Positions 1,222-36,723 of a stretch of DNA of 64,000 nucleotides are shown here, piece by piece; within the stretch, counting starts at the first letter, position 1; the number at the start of each line of letters is the position of its first letter. The notes below the pieces were generated by a model, which was not told where the DNA came from, ran no database searches, and saw only the letters and a list, made by a program, of their open reading frames with translations. The position numbers were made by a program, and so were the translations under genes. Origin of the DNA: Dictyostelium discoideum (taxonomy: Eukaryota); assembly GCA_000004695.1 (NCBI GenBank), contig CM000150.2:1120001-1184000 (forward strand), in the 5' to 3' direction.

Positions 1222-1612
1222 ATTGCAGTGTACATTAAAAAAAAAAAAAAAACTTTAACTATAATAAATAAACATTTAATTATGTGATAAATATCACATA
1301 CACTTTTTAAATCAATAATTTATTTTATTATTTATTCAATTTTTAAATTTTCTAAACAAACACCACGCCCAATAAATCATATCAACTTCCATTTAATTAA
1401 ATTAAAATAAAAAAAATTAATAAATAAAATAAAATAAATAATTAAGAAAATAATATTAATATTAAAATTAATATTTTATTGTATTAAAAACTTTAAAAAG
1501 AAATCTTATAGTTTTTGTTGAAATTTATTTATTCATCTGATCTTAAAGATATTATTTCAGAATTATCATAAAGATTAATTGTATCTTTATTTTTTAAATA
1601 AAAAGAATAAAA

Positions 1613-1735
1613 TTGATTGGAACAATAATCATTAAAAAATGGTTCGATGACTCTTATGAACATATAATGGGCGATAAAGGCTTTCAAGGATCCGATAAAT
1701 TATATTTTAAATTTATAGTAATTTCGAGAAAAAAC

Positions 1736-1776
<41 letters not shown>

Positions 1777-2038
1777 TAATGATGGTGATATAAATGGAGA
1801 ATGTTTTGAACCAGAATATTATGTAAGCGATGAAAAAGAATCAGATGCAAGGTTTAAATCGATTAGAATAATAATTGAAAATGTTTTTGCTCACATTAAA
1901 AAATATTCAATTACCTGTCTCACTTTTAGATTTAAGAATAAGATTGAATCAACAACTTTATTGGACTATCATCATAAAATTTGGTGTGTTGTTGCATTTT
2001 TGGTTAACTTGTATGTTGAAATTAGAAAGAAAGAATAA
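1613..2038 (+). pseudogene. Remnant of a DDE_Tnp_4 (Harbinger/PIF-type) transposase C-terminal region, interrupted by an (AAT)n poly-N insertion. It has no credible start and no N-terminal catalytic part.
   Basis: The 141-aa ORF contains 'GDKGFQGS' and 'ARFKSIRIIIENVFAHIKKYSITCLTFRFKN'. This resembles the conserved 'D.GY' and 'R..VE..Fg.LK.RF.iL' blocks of Harbinger/PIF DDE transposases. The ORF track translates its first residue as M, but the first in-frame ATG is at Met18, the upstream catalytic D residues are missing, and a repeat family follows at 2131-2345. Confidence 0.5.
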
Positions 2039-2130
2039 ACTCTCATATTAATTTAATATGAAAACAATTTCGACAAAAAAAACATTTTCATTTCACAAAA
2101 AAAAACTTTTTTTTCTGAAAATATTATCAT

Positions 2131-2345
2131 TATTTATTATTTTAAATCTATTATCAAATAAATTATTATATATATTTTTTTTTTTTTTTTTTTGGTGTTT
2201 TGAAGATATTTTTATTTTTCGATAAACAGTTTTTTAAATTTTTTTTTCTAAGTTACTTTTTTTAAGATTGGCATTTTTTGGTGTTTTGAAGATATTTTTA
2301 TTTTTTTCGATAATCAGTTTTTTAAATTTTTTTTTCTTTTTTTTT
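2131..2345. repeat. ~115-bp AT-rich repeat element, present here as one full copy plus one partial tandem copy. It reads 'tattttaaatctattatcaaataaattat...tttttcgataaacagttttttaaatttttttttctaag' and is related to the copy at 4961-5075.
   Basis: Direct inspection: 2131-2262 and 4961-5075 share 'ttaaatctattatcaaataaatta(t)tatat' followed by 'ttatttttttcgataa(a/t)cagttttttaaatttttttttctaag'. The second half recurs in tandem at 2270-2340. Confidence 0.75.
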
Positions 2346-2623
2346 TTTTTATTTTAAATATTCACACTTTCACCAATTAAAACACAAACCCTAAAAAATG
2401 CAATGAGTGAAAGATAACACTCCATTTTGACACCTGTGTTGGTGTTGACTTGAACAAAGATCTAAACCATGGGTTAAAAAAAAAAAAAAAATAAAAATAA
2501 TAGACTTAAAAAAAATATAAATACTTTAAAACTTTTTTTTTTTTTTCATTCTCAAAAATAAATTAAATAACTTTTAAAACAAAAAATTTAAATAAATAAA
2601 ATAAAAAAATTAAAAATAAAGAA

Positions 2624-3895
2624 ATGATAAATATTGAAGATATTTCAAAATCTTCAAATGAAAGTGAAGAAAAACAATTAAAAAGTACAAGTACAAGTTC
2701 AAAACCAAAATACCCATTCGCAGCAAAAAGCTTATTCAAAGGTTCAAATAATATTATACCATATTATTTATCAACCAGTAATACATTCCAATGTGTAGCA
2801 TCTGAGTCAATTCAAACATGGCTTCTTTCAGATGATGGTCATATCTTTACATCCAGTGGTAATTTTGTTTTAGATGTTTCATCAGGTGGTTATTTTGTTG
2901 AATTAGTACAACTTAATTCAAATTCAAAAACTCAAATTTGGACAATTGATACAACAAATAATAAAATTCAAAACCAAGGTAATGGTAAATACCTTGATAT
3001 CGACAATTTGAATATTTGTGTTGCACCTTTAAATGGAAACGCAACTCAAAAATGGACAACTTTTAGAAGAGCACCAATTCCAACTGGTAATTGGGGTTAC
3101 TTTCAAAGCAAAAAATTGGATTCCAATAATAATTATTGGGGTCTAAGTGTATTAAATAATAGTACATCATATAATACTAGTGTAGTAATGAATAAAGTTC
3201 AAGCAAAATCAATAGGTCAAATTTGGCAAATGACAAACGATGGTCACATTTTATCACGTTTGGATGGTAATTTAGTATTAGATATTGGTCCATCAATTAA
3301 TGGTAGTAAAACAAACTATTATTTAAATACCAATGTTTACAAAGCAAATGATCTAATGCAACAATGGGGTATCAACGAAAATAATCAAATATTCAATCAA
3401 TATTATCCAAATTTATGTATTGGATTCGTTGGCGAACTTGGAGTTGATTCAACTGTTAATTGTGTATTAGCTCAACCAACTAGTGCTAGTGATATTAATT
3501 TCCAATGGATTGCAAATCCAACCTATTCATTAAACCAAATTGTTAGTGAAGTACCAGAACCATTTCCAGCTTACACAAGTGGTGATTTATTAGCATCATA
3601 TCAATACCTTAGTAATGATGCAACAAATGGTTATACTGATGATATTAGATCACTTTATACAAGTATTAATGTTAGTTTAGAACATTTCTATGTTAATGTC
3701 TCCAATGCAACTTGTCCATCATCAATTCATTCAACTGAAGATTTTTCAAATGTTCAAAATCAAATCAAAAATGAACTCACCTACGCAATCAATGTCCGTT
3801 TAGTATTTGATAACTATTCCGATTTTTATAGTAAATTATTTAGTCAAGGTAGTACAAATTTAACAAACTTGGCAAATTTAATTAATGTCATCTGA
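2624..3895 (+). CDS. Ricin-B (beta-trefoil, QxW) lectin-domain protein, N-terminal ORF of a split gene. It may belong to the Dictyostelium Cup (calcium-upregulated) ricin-B protein family.
   Basis: Repeated QxW motifs are spaced like beta-trefoil subdomains: 'TQIWTID', 'TQKWTTF', '[25 protein letters not shown]', '[13 protein letters not shown]', 'NFQWIANP'. The 423-aa ORF ends at TGA 3893-3895, immediately followed by a 19-bp tandem duplication. Family assignment beyond ricin-B is inference. Confidence 0.6.
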
Positions 3896-3900
3896 CCAAG

Positions 3901-4950
3901 TTGTTGTCATCTGACCAAGTTGTAAATGGAAATTACACCGATGCAATTACCAGTGTTTTTTATGCAATTATTTCAGAGATACCAATTGGTGGTTCAATAA
4001 TTGCAAACATTGGTGAGTCAGCAGTAGAATTTGGTGAATTAGATGCTGAAAGTAATGATTCAGGCCCATCAACCTATCAAGTTACATTAAGTAAACTCTA
4101 TGATCATTTAAATGAAAATTATGAAAATGAAATGGCAAATGCCCAAAGAATGAAAAATACCATTTTACAAGATTGGGGTATGATGAGTAAAACCTTTGCA
4201 TTATGTTTCTTACCAACCAATAATCCATCCTCACTCAATATCAATGGATTAGACTTTCAAAAAATTTCTACCATAGCTTCTATAGCTTACCAAACTGCAA
4301 TGATTCAAATGTTATTACCAACTAATTATCAAATTTACTTTACACCAGCTGGTTACTATGCACCAGTTTCAAGTGATGATTACTCTTATACTGATAGTAC
4401 TGGAACCTATATTATGGCGGAAATCGATAACTGTAACTCTCATCCTCCAAAAGCTTTAACCGATAAGTTATGGAATAATGGAGTTTCAAAACAAGAAGTT
4501 TTCACATCTTCCTATGGTTGGAATTTAGCTACCTCTGTGACCTATTACAATATGGTCGGTAGATATGGTGGAATGTTTAAATTATCTTTCCCAACTGTAA
4601 AGAATTTAACATCAGTACCAATTCAATTCGTAATGACCAATGGAAGGGATAGAGTTGGTACTTTCAATGTTAAAACTCATTTTACTGGATTAGCCTCAAC
4701 ATATTACAATTCAGGTGCCCTTGGTCATCATTATTACGATATTGCTGTAACTGATATTAACGGTAACAAGGTTGCAAATTTCACAGTTGACAATAATTTG
4801 GTAGCTCTTGAAGGTAGTTATGTTTCAATCAAAACTAATTCATTAGTTGTTCAACCAGGTTATGTTGTTGGTAATCCAACTTGTAATCAAGGTGGTTTTT
4901 CTCAAGGATTTGCTGCTTCAATTTTAATTCCAATTTATAAATCAAATTAA
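3901..4950 (+). CDS. C-terminal continuation or partner ORF of the ricin-B lectin gene. It has no ATG start in the present sequence, and its beta-rich C-terminal domain is of unknown family.
   Basis: The 349-aa ORF is open only from TTG at 3901. Removing one copy of the 19-bp duplicate (3905-3923) restores ATG-TCA-TCT ('MSSDQVVNG...'), which overlaps the upstream TGA by 11 nt. The two ORFs total ~772 aa, the size I recall for Cup proteins (~85 kDa). Confidence 0.45.
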
Positions 4951-4960
4951 AAAAATCGAT

Positions 4961-5075
4961 TTTAATTATTTATTATTTTAAATCTATTATCAAATAAATT
5001 ATATATTTTTTTTTTTCGATAGTTTTATTTTTTTCGATAATCAGTTTTTTAAATTTTTTTTTCTAAGATACTGTT
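4961..5075. repeat. Second copy of the ~115-bp repeat, forming direct repeats around the lectin segment.
   Basis: See 2131-2345. It abuts the truncated paralog fragment at ~5075. Confidence 0.75.
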
Positions 5076-5084
5076 ATCTGGTTA

Positions 5085-5690
5085 TCTGAAAAATTAATTT
5101 CTTGATTTGAAATATTACCTTTAATTTTAGATTTGAATTTAATTAATTGATCAAAGAATAAATCGATTCTATTAATATCTAAAAAAAATATTAAATGCTC
5201 ATTTAAAATTTCTAATTTATTACCTCTTTAACTTTTTTCCAATACTTTATAGAGTGATTCAACTGAAGTTTCATCTTCAAAGATTTTTTCAATTGAAATT
5301 TTAAAATTGAAAAATTGATCTTCATCTTCATCCAATTCACCATATACTTCATTAAAATATTTTTAAGATATATAGATTTCATTGACAAGTATTCATATTG
5401 ATTATAGGTTGAATCCAAATCTATAAAAAACTGTTTACCCCCACTATTGGCTTCTTCAATTAAATCATAAGCTTCACAAATCCATTCAAATATATCACAT
5501 TCTTTTAAATATAATTCATAAAGACCTTCTATTAACTTTTGAAATACATTTGCAAACCTTGATTCTGATCGAATATTATCAAAAAAAAATATTTAAAATT
5601 AATGAATTTAATTCAAGTATTGAATGATAGAATGTAGAAAACAAAATTGGTAGAAATCTTTCTTCTAAATTTTCAGTTGAAATTACAAAT
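5085..5690 (-). pseudogene. Inverted, internally deleted fragment paralogous to the C-terminal third of the 33178..36723 gene.
   Basis: The reverse-strand translation matches 'FSTENLERRFLPILFSTFYHSI', 'YLIEEAN.G.K.F.IDL', 'QYEYLSMKSIYLK', 'ILNEHLIFFLDINRI(N/D)LFFDQLIKFKSKIKGNISNQEINFSD' of the large gene. The acidic and SR-rich blocks are missing and stops are present. Confidence 0.7.
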
Positions 5691-5692
5691 TC

Positions 5693-6241
5693 TTGAATAT
5701 AATCATTATAACCAAACTTTATAGAAATTATGAAACAATTTTATCTCAAGTTGAAATTATATTTAAAAATAATTCAAAAGAATCCATTTTAGAATTCATT
5801 AAATATTATTCATCAAAAGATGTATATGAATTAATTGGTAATTTATATTGTGATCATATGGTTATAATGTTTTATATTCTCTATTCATCAGATACTAAAG
5901 ATCAATATTTAGAATTTTTAAATTCAATTAATCCATATTGTTGTTCATCATCGTCACCAGCATGGTCATCATCAATTGATTCAAAACAAAATGAAAATGG
6001 TTCTGATGAAAATGGTGCAGATGAAAAAAGAGAAAAATATTTACATATTCAATCAATTAAATGTTATTTTCCACTTGAATGGAATTTATTTTTAAATAAT
6101 ATTAAATCATATTCTCCATTTAATAAAGTATTATTATTAACTATTTTTAAAATGTTTTCAATCTTTTCTTTTAATATTAAAAAATCTTTATTTATTGAAT
6201 TTCCTTTTTTTAAATATTTCAATGTTAAATTCATTTTCTAA
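5693..6241 (+). pseudogene. Plus-strand fragment paralogous to the middle of the 33178..36723 gene (residues ~430-600).
   Basis: 'ETILSQVEIIFKNNSKESILEFIKYYSSKDVYELIGNLYCDHMVIMFYILYSSDTKDQYLEFLNSINPYCCSSS...YLHIQSIKCYFPLEWN' is near-identical to the large gene but truncated and divergent at both ends. Confidence 0.7.
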
Positions 6242-6334
6242 AAACTTTAAATTAAATAATCTTTTTTTAATTTCAAATGATTCAATTTCAAAGAATTTAT
6301 TAATTTCAATTTTTGAAACATTTATATAACCATC

Positions 6335-6465
6335 TGATTTTGTATTGGTATTGGTATTGGTATTGGTATTTGTATTTGTATTGGTATTTGTATTGGTATT
6401 GGTATTGGTATTGGTATTGGTGGTGGTATTGGTGGTGGTATTGGTATTGGTGGTATTATAAAGTT
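6335..6465. repeat. (GGTATT)n hexanucleotide microsatellite.
   Basis: Tandem 'tattggtattggtatt' units; the 'WYWYWY' ORF it generates is an artefact. Confidence 0.9.
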
Positions 6466-7364
6466 TTGGATTATCTAAAATTAATTCTAATAACTCTACA
6501 TTACAACGATAATTATTATAAACTGTAATTGAAATAATTTTATTTTTTAACTCAACTCAATTGAACTCATTATTTCTTTGGTGAAATTTTAATTGGTTTT
6601 GAAATTAATTTTAAGAAAGCTAAAAAAAAATAAAAAAATAAAAAAACAAATAAAAAAAATTAAATAAAAAAAAATAGAATACTAATATAAACATTAATTT
6701 TAATTAAACCCAACCAGATTTTTTTATTTGTTTTTGTTTTTATTTTTATTTTTTTTTTTATTTTTTTTTATTTTTTTTTGTTTTTTTTTTTTTTGTTTTT
6801 TTTTTTTTTTTTTTTTTTTTGAAAAGTATTTTTAATTGGATATTATTTGAAAAATATTTTTAAACTGGGGGTGTGTTGGTGTTTAATTTTTCTGTTTAAT
6901 TTTTTTGTTTTTTTTTTCTTCATTATTAAACAAAAAAAAAAAAAAAATAAAAACAATTTAACAAAAAAAACAAAATAAAAATAACTTTTTTTGAATTTGA
7001 CACTTTTGGTGTGAAAAGGATTAAAAAAGATTACGGAGTGGATTATTAAAATATTACAAAAAAAAAAATTTTTTAATGACAATAGTAATTTATGTTTTAA
7101 TATAATTTCGGTAAATAAAAAAAATAAAATAAAAAAAAAAACAAAAAAACAAAAAAAAATAAATAAAAAAATAAAATATATGTATAATAAAAAGTAATAA
7201 ATAAAATAAATAAAATAAATAAAATAAAAAAATAAAAATAATATGTTTAAGGTGATTGATCAAAAATTTTAAAAGAAAAAAAAAAGAAAATTTAAAAATA
7301 ATTTTTTTTTGAAAATTTGAAAAGGCAAAAGGGCCAAAAGATTTTTTGAATATTTGCATTTCCG

Positions 7365-8798: not shown

Positions 8799-12710
<3,912 letters not shown>

Positions 12711-33177: not shown

Positions 33178-36100
33178 ATGAAAGAAATAAATAGTAGTAA
33201 GAATGAAATTTTATTTTGGAAAGTTTTTAAAAATAAATTATTATTTAATAATATTTTCGATGTTATGGTAAAAATACCAATAAAATATAATGATTATACA
33301 AAGATTCATTCATTTAATAGAATAAAATTTAAATATATTATTTCATTAAAATTTATGATCGAAAAGAATCTCTATAAATTATTAAAATGTAAATTAGATA
33401 ATAAAGAGTCAATAATTGTTGAAGAGGATTCAATGATTTCGATATTTAAAAAAAAACAAAATATTGAAGATGAAAAAAAAAATGAAAAATTATTATTATT
33501 AATTTTAAAAAATAGAGAAACATTAAAATTAGATAATAGTTTTGATTTTATACAAAAAGCAATATTTGAATCAAATGAAAAAGTTTTAAATCTTTTATTA
33601 AATTATCCAAATGAAATTTCAACAAATCAACTACATCAAAAACCTCTTTTAATAATTAAAGATTCACACATTCAAAGTATAATTGGAAATTCAAATGTTT
33701 CAATGTTAAAAACTTTATTAAATTCATCACTATTTAAAAATCAGCAACAACAACAATTGGAACAATTTCATCAATTAGTACCTTCAAATGAATTAAAAAA
33801 TAAAATTATTTCTATTACAATTAATAATAGTTATCGTTGCAATGAAGAGTTATTAGAATTTATTTTAGATAATCCAACACTTTATAATACCACCACCACC
33901 ACCACCACCAATATCACAAAACCAGATGGTGATATAAATGTTTCAAAAATTGAAATTAATAAATTCTTTGAAATTGAATCATTTGAAATTAAAAAGAGGT
34001 TATTCAATTTAAAGTTTTTAGAAATTGAATTTAACATTGAAATATTTAAAAAAAAAGTGAATTCAATCACTAAAGATTCTTCAATATTAAAAGAAAAGAT
34101 TGAAAACATTTTAAAAATAGTTAATAATAATAAAGAAAATTCCCATGATCAAGATTATGGTAATGAATTTAAAAGTCTTTTAAAATTATATTCTCCATAT
34201 TCAAATGATGTTTATAAACAATACATTTTAAATTATAAAGAGATAATCGATGATGATCATGATGATGTTGAATATTTACAATTTATAGATATTAATAAAA
34301 AGATTGAAACAGAGCTATTATATTCACTCAATACTTTTAATTTAGAATTATTAAAAAAAGTAATTGAAAAAAATGAAAAACAACAAAAACAACAACAACA
34401 AAAACAAGTGTTTCAAGAGATTTTTAAAAAATATGTTCCAATTGATATTTATAGAGAAAATGAAACAGTTTTATCTCAAGTAGAGATTATTTTTAATAAT
34501 AATTCAAAAGAATCCATTTTAGAATTCATTAAATATTATTCATCAAAAGATGTATATGAATTAATTGGTAACTTATATTGTGATCATATTATTATTATGT
34601 TTTGTTTTCTTTATTCATCAGATACTAAAGATCAATATTTAGAATTTTTAAATTCAATTAATCAATATTGTTGTTCATCATCATCTTCATCGTCATTGTC
34701 ATCATCAATTGATTCAGAACCAAATGAAAACGGTGCTAATGAAAATGGTGCAGATGGAAATGGTGGTGCAGATGAAAATGGAGCTGATGAAAATGGTGGT
34801 GCAGACGAAAAAAAAGATAAATATTTACATATTCAATCAATTAAATGTTATTTTCCACTAGAATGGAATTCATTTTTAAAGAATATTAAATCATATTATC
34901 CATTTACTAAAGATAGTAAAGTACCATCAGTTACAATGAGTATTGATGATAAAGAAACAATTGATTGGTTATTTAATACATGTGGTCATTCAACATTTTC
35001 AAAGATAATTGTTAATTATTTACGTTTGAAATCAATTGATTTAATCGAATATACAATTGAAAAATATAAACTCAATGGTAAAGAAAGATCATTACTATAT
35101 TCAATACCATTTTATAATGCAATCATTGATTTCAATGTTAATGAAATTAAAAAAATTATCAATTTAAATATAAATGGTCCAATTGAAGAGTATTATAATT
35201 TCAGTACATTATTATTAAATTCATTTACTGAAAAATTTATTAATAAAGATGAAAAAGATAAACATGAAGATAAAGATGAACACGAACATGAAGATGAAGA
35301 TCAAGATGAAGATCAAGATGAAGATGAAGATGAAGATGAAGATGAAGATGAAGATGAAGATGAAGATGAAGATGAAGATGAAGATGAAGATGAAGATGAA
35401 GATGAAGATGAAGATGAAAAAGATGAATATGAGGATGAAGATTTTTCAAATAATTTTTATAAAACATTCAGATACTTGATAAAAATTAATTTCAAAAATT
35501 TTTCAACAACTGCGTTTAAAGAATTTTTAAACCTGTTATTGATAAGAAGCGATTGTGGTGAACTTATTATAAAAGATATTAATTTTACTGGTATTGAATT
35601 TTCAACTGAAAATTTAGAAAGAAGATTTCTACCAATTTTGTTTTCTACATTCTATCATTCAATAGGTGAACCCGGTCCATTGTCTTTTTATGGCTATTTC
35701 AATAGTAAAGATATGTCTAGAATTTTTTCAGCTAGTTTAGAAATATTTGAAGATTTTGAATTTTATATTAGTGATTGCTCTGGAGATATAGAAAGTCTTT
35801 GTTTGTTTATTGAGTTTTTATTAATCGATTATAAGTATTCAACATATATTCCCTCTACAACTACCAGTAGTAGTAGTAGAAGCAGAAGTAGTAGTAGTAG
35901 TGGTAGTAGTAGAAGTAGTAGAAGTAGAAGTAGTAGTAGTAGTGGTAGTAGTAGAAGTAGTAGTAGAAGTAGAAGTAGTAGTGACTCAAGTACAACGTCA
36001 CCACCATCATCTCCAAATATTGATACTGATAATTTTTCAGAATTAAGGTATCAAAATCTATTTGAAAAGTTAGTAGAGGAAATTTATAAACTTTTATTAA

Positions 36101-36723
36101 AACAAAGTCATAAATGTGGTAAATTTGATTGGGTTTACGTAGGTTATTATTTAATAGAAGAAGCCAATTATGGAGACAAACCATTTTGTATTGATTTGAA
36201 TTCAAACTATTTTCAATATGAATACTTGTCAATGAAATCAATATATCTTAAAAAATATTTAAATGAAGTATATGGAGAATTGGATGAAGACGAAGATCAA
36301 TTTTTCAATTTTAAAATTTCAATTAAAAAAATCTTTGATGATAAAACTTCAGTTGAATCACTCTATAAAGTATTGGAAAAAAGTTTAATACGTGATAAAT
36401 TACAAATTTTAAATGAGCATTTAATATTTTTTTTAGATATTAATAGAATCAATTTATTCTTTGATCAATTAATCAAATTCAAATCAAAAATTAAAGGTAA
36501 TATTTCAAATCAGGAAATTAATTTTTCAGATAAAGTTTTTATTACAACATTAAAAGTTTTAGATGAAAATTCATTTAAATCATTTTTTAATGATTATTGT
36601 TCCAATCAATTTTATTCATTTTATTTTAAAAATAAAGATACAATTACTCTATATGATAATTCTGAAATTGTAAAACAATTAATATCTTTAAAATCTGACG
36701 ATCAATTATCACCAAAAAATTAA
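33178..36723 (+). CDS. Large (1181 aa) orphan protein with a (DE)n acidic block and Arg/Ser-rich tandem repeats; family unknown.
   Basis: Uninterrupted ORF. (GAAGAT)n at 35290-35420 encodes 'DEDEDE...'. 35870-35990 encodes 'SSSRSRSSSSSGSSRSS' repeated. Paralogous fragments lie at 5085-6241. Confidence 0.7.
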   Translation: MKEINSSKNEILFWKVFKNKLLFNNIFDVMVKIPIKYNDYTKIHSFNRIKFKYIISLKFMIEKNLYKLLKCKLDNKESIIVEEDSMISIFKKKQNIEDEKKNEKLLLLILKNRETLKLDNSFDFIQKAIFESNEKVLNLLLNYPNEISTNQLHQKPLLIIKDSHIQSIIGNSNVSMLKTLLNSSLFKNQQQQQLEQFHQLVPSNELKNKIISITINNSYRCNEELLEFILDNPTLYNTTTTTTTNITKPDGDINVSKIEINKFFEIESFEIKKRLFNLKFLEIEFNIEIFKKKVNSITKDSSILKEKIENILKIVNNNKENSHDQDYGNEFKSLLKLYSPYSNDVYKQYILNYKEIIDDDHDDVEYLQFIDINKKIETELLYSLNTFNLELLKKVIEKNEKQQKQQQQKQVFQEIFKKYVPIDIYRENETVLSQVEIIFNNNSKESILEFIKYYSSKDVYELIGNLYCDHIIIMFCFLYSSDTKDQYLEFLNSINQYCCSSSSSSSLSSSIDSEPNENGANENGADGNGGADENGADENGGADEKKDKYLHIQSIKCYFPLEWNSFLKNIKSYYPFTKDSKVPSVTMSIDDKETIDWLFNTCGHSTFSKIIVNYLRLKSIDLIEYTIEKYKLNGKERSLLYSIPFYNAIIDFNVNEIKKIINLNINGPIEEYYNFSTLLLNSFTEKFINKDEKDKHEDKDEHEHEDEDQDEDQDEDEDEDEDEDEDEDEDEDEDEDEDEDEDEDEDEKDEYEDEDFSNNFYKTFRYLIKINFKNFSTTAFKEFLNLLLIRSDCGELIIKDINFTGIEFSTENLERRFLPILFSTFYHSIGEPGPLSFYGYFNSKDMSRIFSASLEIFEDFEFYISDCSGDIESLCLFIEFLLIDYKYSTYIPSTTTSSSSRSRSSSSSGSSRSSRSRSSSSSGSSRSSSRSRSSSDSSTTSPPSSPNIDTDNFSELRYQNLFEKLVEEIYKLLLKQSHKCGKFDWVYVGYYLIEEANYGDKPFCIDLNSNYFQYEYLSMKSIYLKKYLNEVYGELDEDEDQFFNFKISIKKIFDDKTSVESLYKVLEKSLIRDKLQILNEHLIFFLDINRINLFFDQLIKFKSKIKGNISNQEINFSDKVFITTLKVLDENSFKSFFNDYCSNQFYSFYFKNKDTITLYDNSEIVKQLISLKSDDQLSPKN

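Follow-up and report, generated by a model that had tools for sequence, protein, structure and literature searches.

The frameshifted cupA lectin gene of Dictyostelium discoideum lies within a patchwork of DNA duplications

Introduction

The cup (calcium up-regulated protein) genes of Dictyostelium discoideum, cupA-cupH, are said to have been described by Coukell et al. 2004 (Eukaryot Cell 3:61), with Ca2+ co-regulation reportedly acting through calcineurin. Here we analyze the cupA locus within a window of 64,000 nucleotides from D. discoideum (GenBank assembly GCA_000004695.1, contig CM000150.2, positions 1,120,001 to 1,184,000 of the forward strand); coordinates given without a locus label refer to this window. 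The locus is the annotated, frameshifted cupA lectin gene, inside an ordinary patchwork of DNA duplications, and both the gene and its family were already known. We regard it as very probable that the cupA block arose as a DNA-level duplication or break-repair insertion into an older pseudogene, and was disabled later. Elsewhere, passages of PMC3188802 describe the Cup proteins as cytoplasmic lectins that are 'evolutionarily dynamic', and say there that their carbohydrate-binding domains appear to be dictyostelid-specific. A 2025 transcriptome paper names cupB, cupG, cupC and cupF, not cupA.

The closest system is the Cup family itself. The two open reading frames (ORFs) of cupA together span the full 769 aa of CupB, CupC and CupF at 84-96% identity, and the double ricin-B module, the upstream module and the 3' flank are all common to cupA and the other cup genes. 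cupA differs in its lesion (-8/+19 nt), which leaves only 423 aa encoded, in lying alone on another chromosome than the main cup arrays, nested in another pseudogene, and in being the only sampled copy with a restart of the unit after it. A second comparison is with the tandem and segmental duplication with unequal crossing-over that builds other lineage-specific expansions. The cup genes likewise come in ~2.8-kb units with flanks, in arrays of strain-variable size, and likewise include partial units, truncated copies (cupD) and frameshifted copies (cupA, and a copy in a TRAF gene cluster, here L005). cupA departs from this pattern in that a head-to-tail junction lies 15 bp after its stop codon and its block was co-inserted with an unrelated transposase fragment, which suggests template-switching or filler-DNA repair rather than simple crossover. 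A third comparison is with PIF/Harbinger transposons, since the transposase fragment matches the C-terminal half of their DDE_Tnp_4 domain; it occurs here without the N-terminal half, inverted ends or a TWA duplication, and only short decayed Dictyostelium relatives of it were found. Our literature search on Harbinger elements in Dictyostelium found nothing specific.

The cup loci compared were those of cupB and an adjacent gene taken as cupF (L002), cupC (L007), cupD (L008) and the L005 copy, together with two four-unit arrays, one from another D. discoideum strain (L010) and one from D. cf. discoideum (L001).

Results

cupA is a single ricin-B gene split by a frameshift

An earlier reading made from the letters alone (the sequence-only reading) saw a two-ORF gene with an N-terminal double ricin-B lectin, and likened it to the Cup family. 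Both points were borne out: ORF1 is identical at 423/423 residues to CupA itself (XP_647418.1 / Q55FW5, D. discoideum AX4), and the two ORFs are a single ricin-B gene split by a frameshift. In the Pfam search that this reading had called for, DDE_Tnp_4 (below) and Ricin_B_lectin were matched, the latter in two stretches of ORF1 (E=8e-17), and no family was matched in ORF2. Searching with the joined ORFs returned 13 clusters, all from Dictyostelium and nearly all of 763-771 aa, the best being 94% identical over its full length. The joined ORFs align end to end with the Cup proteins of 769 aa, which is the length of the intact paralogues, and in this alignment ORF1 ends and ORF2 starts at ...NLANLINV/DM/SSDQVVNG... 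(slashes mark the boundaries).

The lesion was defined against the cup copies in L001, L002, L005, L007 and L008. It consists of a perfect 19-nt tandem duplication at 3886-3923, with TGTCATCTGACCAAGTTGT present twice (Tandem Repeats Finder, TRF; 100% match), beside which 8 nt, TGTTGATA, are deleted relative to the aligned intact paralogues; these read AATTTAATTAATGTTGATATGTCATCTGACCAAGTTGTTAATGGA at the site. The net gain of 11 nt shifts the frame and brings in a premature TGA at 3893-3895, so that cupA lacks the full-length intact reading frame that is a trait of the Cup family. The lesion is also present in a second assembly (L006). A 423-aa GenBank protein deposited separately, AAP40296.1, falls in the cluster (at least 90% identity) of CupA, a cluster whose listing names cupA, C, D and F; because of this separate deposit, the truncation is unlikely to be an assembly error. 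The cupA product now comprises two ricin-B trefoils and the start of a helical domain, without the hydrophobic hairpin and the beta domain that follow in its paralogues. Its coding sequence (CDS) has 33 differences from cupC in about 2,300 sites, with a synonymous divergence (dS) of 0.02-0.03 (~0.03 for the 3907..4950 part), and these differences are too few for a contrast of nonsynonymous to synonymous divergence (dN/dS) between ORF1 and ORF2 to be informative.

The newer assembly (L006 10001-12327, equivalent to window 2624-4950) annotates cupA as a protein of 765 aa, in which the frameshift is necessarily bridged by an artificial intron. Damaged genes seem to have been rescued in a similar way in the models of cupD (675 aa) and of the L005 copy (689 aa).

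The direct repeats are the upstream module of cup genes

The direct repeats that bound the gene, with an additional tandem half-copy on the upstream side, had been noticed before and are real, far above chance. A 37-mer at 2130-2166 is 37/37 identical at 4966-5002, and a 36-mer at 5032-5067 recurs at 2217-2252 (1 mismatch) and 2305-2340 (3 mismatches), while dinucleotide-shuffled sequence gave 0 matches. TRF finds an 88-nt tandem of 1.9 copies at 2188-2351, and no further copies of the repeat were found elsewhere in the window. Three sub-motifs can be written: m1 (TTATTTATTATTTTAAATCTATTATCAA), m2 (GGTGTTTTGAAGATATTTTTATT) and m3 (CGATAATCAGTTTTTTAAATTTTTTTTTCT). Modules of m1, m2 and m3 lie ~400-500 bp before the ATG of cupB, cupF, cupC, cupD and the L005 copy. 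For one L010 copy m1 alone was detected, ~650 bp upstream, and in the L001 array m1 and m3 were undetected at the same stringency. At cupC and cupF the homology extends well upstream beyond the module. Because the module precedes most sampled cup copies, and because the cupC and cupF homology runs further upstream than the module does, the repeat is the distal upstream region of cup genes and not a free-standing repeat family. The proposal that the 115-bp repeat is an independent family or a transposon end fails on the same two observations.

The downstream copy is 113 bp long and has lost m2 through a deletion of ~18 nt; its best match is the module upstream of cupD (97 matches, 2 mismatches, one 18-nt gap). 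The cupA 3' flank, ...AAAAATCGATTTTA, runs directly into ATTATTTATTATTTTAAATC..., which starts at the first base of a cup unit, and the head-to-tail junction from first to second unit reads ...TCGATTTTA/ATTATTTATT... (in continuous form, AATCGATTTTAATTATTTATT). In this arrangement the downstream copy is what remains of a second cup unit, attached to the first head to tail. Among the loci sampled, the cup-to-module junction was found only at cupA. Compared with the cupA unit, that of cupC (L007 4516-7325) shows 96.3% identity and that of cupF (L002) 94.5%; for both, the homology begins at window position 2122 and ends about 4965. An apparent extension of the cupF homology to 5062 was rejected, as pairwise alignment shows AT-rich noise there, and the cupC alignment stops at ~4965.

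The block interrupts an older pseudogene

The DNA on both sides of the block derives from one parent gene, which lies intact further along the window at 33178-36723. The left piece, 1442-1640, corresponds to parent 36789-36580, with a well-matched core at 1543-1640; the right piece resumes at parent 36533, collinear with the left. Because both flanks are collinear with one parent gene, 1641-5080 is best seen as a 3.44-kb block inserted into an older pseudogene. The block holds the transposase remnant (1641-2127), the cup unit (2128-4965) and the restart (4966-5078), and ~47 bp of target have been lost relative to the parent gene. Its flanks read ...AAAAAAT/GG... and ...ATCTG/GTTATCTG..., with a small GTTATCTG duplication at the right junction. 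By segment, the host pseudogene is 74-92% identical to its parent in nucleotides; 5082-6554 is a scrambled partial copy, 81-92% identical, with many stops and internal deletions. The paralogue fragment previously seen as truncated by the repeat at 5075 is thus real and does abut the downstream repeat; it is split, however, with its continuation at ~1442-1640. Features of the locus are collected in Table 1.

Within the old pseudogene, at 6342-6451, is an 18-copy array of the hexamer GTATTG, which would encode a Thr-Asn repeat on the minus strand. A decayed cup remnant was looked for both between the genes of the arrays and at window positions 5076-6700, and rejected: tblastn gave no match, and an apparent 'vestige' upstream of cupF is AT-rich chance similarity.

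Table 1. Features of the cupA locus and the parent gene of its host pseudogene (window coordinates)
Feature	Position	Strand	Basis
Left piece of older pseudogene (3' end of gene 33178-36723, antisense)	1442..1640	-	local alignment; blastn E=1.7e-34
Dead DDE_Tnp_4 (PIF/Harbinger-type) transposase remnant: C-terminal coding part to stop at 2038, plus 89 bp 3' flank	1641..2127	+	Pfam PF13359; L003 paralogue
Complete cup duplication unit: distal upstream module, promoter region, cupA CDS, 15 bp 3' flank	2128..4965	+	cupC/cupF unit alignments
Upstream 'repeat', the cup distal upstream module (m1 2130-2166, m2 2194-2216, m3 2217-2252), then 88-nt-period partial tandem copy 2270-2340	2130..2351	+	TRF; motif comparison
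cupA ORF1, 423 aa: double ricin-B beta-trefoil and helical domain start, ending at premature TGA	2624..3895	+	identity to annotated CupA
Disabling lesion: 19-nt tandem duplication and 8-nt deletion	3886..3923	+	TRF; paralogue alignment
Out-of-frame rest of cupA (Cup residues 423-769): hydrophobic helical hairpin, rest of helical domain, C-terminal beta domain	3907..4950	+	Cup alignment; structure model
Downstream 'repeat', the first 113 bp of a second cup unit (m1 and m3; m2 gone)	4966..5078	+	motif comparison
Right piece of older pseudogene, scrambled partial copy of gene 33178-36723	5081..6627	-	tblastn, blastn
Segments of the right piece	5082-5581 (-), 5612-5688 (-), 5718-6128 (+, inverted), 6129-6370 (-), 6412-6627 (-)		
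Intact parent gene of the split pseudogene, 1181-aa ORF	33178..36723	+	no significant Pfam match

cup genes spread as DNA-level units

The genes flanking the cupB/cupF array are the same throughout, and the number of units in it is 2 in L002 (10001-16352, one D. discoideum assembly) and 4 in both L010 (6109-18547, another strain) and L001 (6232-19376, D. cf. discoideum). At the cupC locus, a segmental duplication has reproduced the final 365 nt of cupB, the DNA between cupB and cupF, and cupF. The L005 copy carries frameshifts, and the homology of cupD is lost at the equivalent of window 4579. These loci show that cup genes spread by DNA-level duplication of about 2.8-kb units together with their flanks. 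The 365-nt cupB 3' remnant upstream of cupC (L007 3116-3480) has been fused by annotation onto a 1370-aa gene model, which is probably a mis-annotation.

Origin of the block

From the identities, boundaries, lesion, module distribution and split host pseudogene observed above, we infer an order of events and a repair or duplication mechanism, including the two possible forms of the template. A partial scrambled copy of the nearby gene 33178-36723 would already have been at the site as a pseudogene when a double-strand break in it was repaired by copying foreign DNA, bringing in the 3.44-kb block at the cost of ~47 bp of target. The source may have been a single donor stretch, in which tandem cup units adjoined a DDE remnant, or the template may have switched several times in succession; the head-to-tail restart would result if a cup template, circular or in tandem, was copied around. 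The block would have comprised the 3' half of a dead DDE_Tnp_4 fragment, a complete unit closely related to those of cupC and cupF, and 113 bp from the start of another unit. Two later events of slippage type, the 8-nt deletion and the 19-nt duplication, both at TGT microhomologies, would then have broken the cupA frame. The microhomologies at the junctions and the loss of target fit break repair, not transposase-mediated integration, and the dS of 0.02-0.03 between cupA and cupC, set against the 74-92% identity of the pseudogene to its parent, fits an insert younger than its host.

Several points weigh against this history. The insertion itself is deduced solely from the paralogous parent gene. 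None of the loci sampled is a donor with a DDE fragment beside a cup unit, which leaves the single-block origin unproven, and the head-to-tail junction was seen in no sampled tandem array; when it was sought in the four-unit arrays, only spurious AT-rich extensions were obtained. Gene conversion among cup copies softens any timing based on divergence. Finally, the DDE fragment ends on the right at 2127 at two loci, as a true terminus would, and this leaves a small opening for transposon involvement.

The module might have a function of its own. It is possible, though we hold it only tentatively, that it is a cis-regulatory element of cup genes, serving for example Ca2+/calcineurin-dependent induction, and that the second copy at cupA is a passive by-product; this would be compatible with break-repair insertion. 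Indels have turned over heavily in the AT-rich DNA around it, and yet in most D. discoideum cup copies sampled the module still lies ~400-500 bp upstream; the paralogues are, however, very young (dS 0.02-0.3), and the conservation may reflect recent common descent.

We consider it unlikely that the 115-bp repeat is a recombination hotspot driving cup rearrangements, with the downstream copy marking an unequal crossover through it. Such a role would accommodate the change in copy number from 2 to 4 between strains at the cupB/cupF array, and also the position of the module, which stands at the exact start of the cupA unit and once more after its end. However, the cupA junction joins the cup 3' flank (TCGATTTTA) to the module start via a few bases of microhomology, not module to module; the units of the sampled arrays are homologous over about 2.5-2.9 kb, which offers recombination a much longer substrate than 115 bp would; and the duplication boundaries at cupC and cupF lie well outside the module. 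What survives of the hotspot suggested in the sequence-only reading is the general sense that whole cup units recombine (2 vs 4 units), but not that the hotspot is built from the repeat.

The transposase remnant

In ORF 1613-2038, a match to PF13359 (E=2e-7; 31.2 bits, cut-off 24.8) spans profile positions 74-158/158 and confirms the C-terminal remnant of a Harbinger/PIF-type DDE_Tnp_4 transposase suspected in the sequence-only reading. It is 5'-truncated, with the C-terminal half only; the motifs GDKGF and IIENVF, seen by eye, could represent the catalytic triad's second Asp and its Glu. Antisense pseudogene sequence makes up the first ~9 codons of this ORF, and the DDE-derived DNA covers ~1641-2127, as bounded by comparison with a 91%-identical fragment in another strain (L003 9800-10581). 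That paralogous fragment keeps more of the decayed transposase; it is flanked by a MOSC gene and a Rab-like gene, has no cup in its vicinity, and ends on the right at the base equivalent to 2127. Four DDE homologues, fragments of 113-240 aa, were found in a word-index-limited search, and no intact transposase of this family turned up in D. discoideum in this search of limited sensitivity. The ORF listing of 1105-2127 has no additional long ORF that might be a Myb/SANT-like partner, though no dedicated Myb search was run. A second D. discoideum DDE_Tnp_4 remnant, a 240-aa gene model, lies between two WD40 genes (L004 6001-7308). Genes of 218 aa stand beside the DDE paralogue and beside the cup array; they are unrelated, and their equal length is coincidental.

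Break-repair insertion must be weighed against the idea that a PIF/Harbinger-type transposon acquired a cup gene, by transduplication or by aberrant one-ended transposition, the block being this element or a derivative of it and the repeats part of its sequence. The DDE_Tnp_4 fragment does directly abut the cup unit at 2127/2128, and fragment, unit and restart together form one insertion in the pseudogene. We nevertheless find a transposon origin very unlikely. A complete DDE_Tnp_4 transposase is absent, only the C-terminal half being present, with unrelated pseudogene sequence upstream of 1641, and its few homologues are all short fragments. Inverted repeats at the ends of the insert reach a best alignment score of 9, as against a shuffle mean of 9.7 and maximum of 15; those at the ends of cup units score 12-13, within shuffle level, and repeat-to-repeat ends are likewise not above shuffle. 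The insert flanks show no target-site duplication, including the 3-bp TWA; ~47 bp of target are missing instead. No DDE fragment occurs at the other cup loci sampled, and no cup gene at the L003 DDE fragment. Together these findings tell against the non-autonomous element, with a captured host gene, that had been proposed.

Other classes of element fare similarly. Several copies with shared termini and captured host DNA, as in Pack-type elements, were not seen among the loci sampled, where the boundaries of cup units vary. Equal bounding direct repeats with a target-site duplication, as in long terminal repeat (LTR) elements, were not seen here: m2 is missing from the downstream copy, which stops at 113 bp, the target site is not duplicated, and at cupC and cupF the upstream copy forms part of a longer stretch of homology. 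ORF2 matches only the C-terminal region of Cup proteins, and intact paralogues exist elsewhere, essentially the outcome that the sequence-only reading had itself named as telling against it. An interpretation by a mobile element or repeat family is not supported by these comparisons.

A second assembly and the setting of the locus

Over its first 14 kb the window agrees at 99.6% with a second assembly, GCA_054883475.1 (CM142508.1; loci L006 and L009). Because over 1400-6700 this assembly is of equal length and has 6 substitutions only, misassembly of this region seems unlikely; its strain may be closely related to that of the window. It is scarcely credible that errors of sequencing or assembly, in a family of many copies, produced the frameshift and the arrangement of repeats: the window carries cupC bases at six clustered cupA sites, possibly by read cross-talk, but the second assembly agrees in length over 5.3 kb and has lesion and junctions alike, and the 423-aa AAP40296.1 in the CupA cluster was deposited separately. 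All six differences between the window and L006 cluster in cupA ORF1, at 2969-3320, with the window having the cupC base at 6/6; they could mark a tract of gene conversion, or, in one of the assemblies, reads from one paralogue may have been mixed with those of another.

The window has a G+C content of ~20%, with coding tracts of poly-Asn and poly-Gln, and no tRNA genes were found in its 64 kb. Upstream of the cupA locus lies the 3' end of a GLE1-like gene, and downstream a P-type cation ATPase, of which a large exon at 10140-12710 is ~5 kb 3' of cupA; the full gene encodes 1220 aa in GCA_054883475.1.

The Cup protein module

Searching with a profile built from 15 Cup proteins gave 225 representative homologues (E<=0.001), of which 119 reach E<=1e-10. 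They include proteins of other dictyostelids (D. purpureum, Polysphondylium violaceum, Heterostelium album) and of bacteria (Streptomyces gardneri, Streptacidiphilus, Comamonas sp., Methylovulum miyakonense, Ca. Binatia). Several homologues of the Cup module have ricin-type N-terminal lectin domains, and that of Methylovulum has a weak, sub-threshold match to a putidacin-type lectin. The bacterial homologues qualify the published remark on dictyostelid specificity (in the passage of PMC3188802 quoted above).

An AlphaFold2 model of CupC from a 124-sequence alignment reached a mean predicted local distance difference test (pLDDT) score of 86 and a predicted template modeling (pTM) score of 0.83 (pLDDT 38 from a 15-sequence alignment). 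In the model a double beta-trefoil (26-296) is followed by a helical domain (300-561) and then by a beta domain (563-767); ricin B chains and HA33 head its Foldseek matches. In CupC, as in the family as a whole, hydrophobicity is highest in a conserved, predicted helix-turn-helix at 432-467, just after the cupA frameshift point. For Cup residues ~300-769 (the equivalent of window 3520-4950), no matching solved structure was found. The beta-rich C-terminal domain described earlier is present in the model as the beta domain, but the region as a whole is predicted to be helical first and then beta.

The architecture had also been likened to pore-forming or cytolytic toxins, a likeness that did not hold up: ORF2 has no aerolysin, ETX/MTX2 or other significant Pfam match. 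With toxins that join a trefoil to a pore-former (Tpp/Bin, Cry35, CEL-III, LSL-type lectin toxins), the alignment is confined to about 120-190 residues, which is close to one trefoil plus some extension, and the C-terminal part of Cup proteins, helical then beta, is not aerolysin-like. We would still raise one idea, which we hold to be doubtful: that Cup residues ~300-769 form a membrane-acting effector of an undescribed fold family, fused to different lectins in social amoebae and bacteria and horizontally transferred. If this were true, Cup proteins would be lectin-targeted toxin-like or membrane-repair proteins, and the cupA frameshift would leave a lectin-only product.

Discussion

Since cupA and the Cup family were already described and annotated, and the repeat is no new mobile element, little changes here. 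For annotation there is a caveat, in that the '141-aa DDE ORF' and the 765-aa cup model are both artefacts of reading through junctions or frameshifts. What the locus does illustrate well is the way in which a lectin family that is young and varies between strains spreads in Dictyostelium. The promoter-distal module travels along with the whole unit, copies decay fast (cupA, cupD and the L005 copy), and duplicated fragments from several sources accumulate at one break site. The bacterial relatives and the confident predicted structure may open the biochemical role of the Cup proteins to structure-guided experiments.

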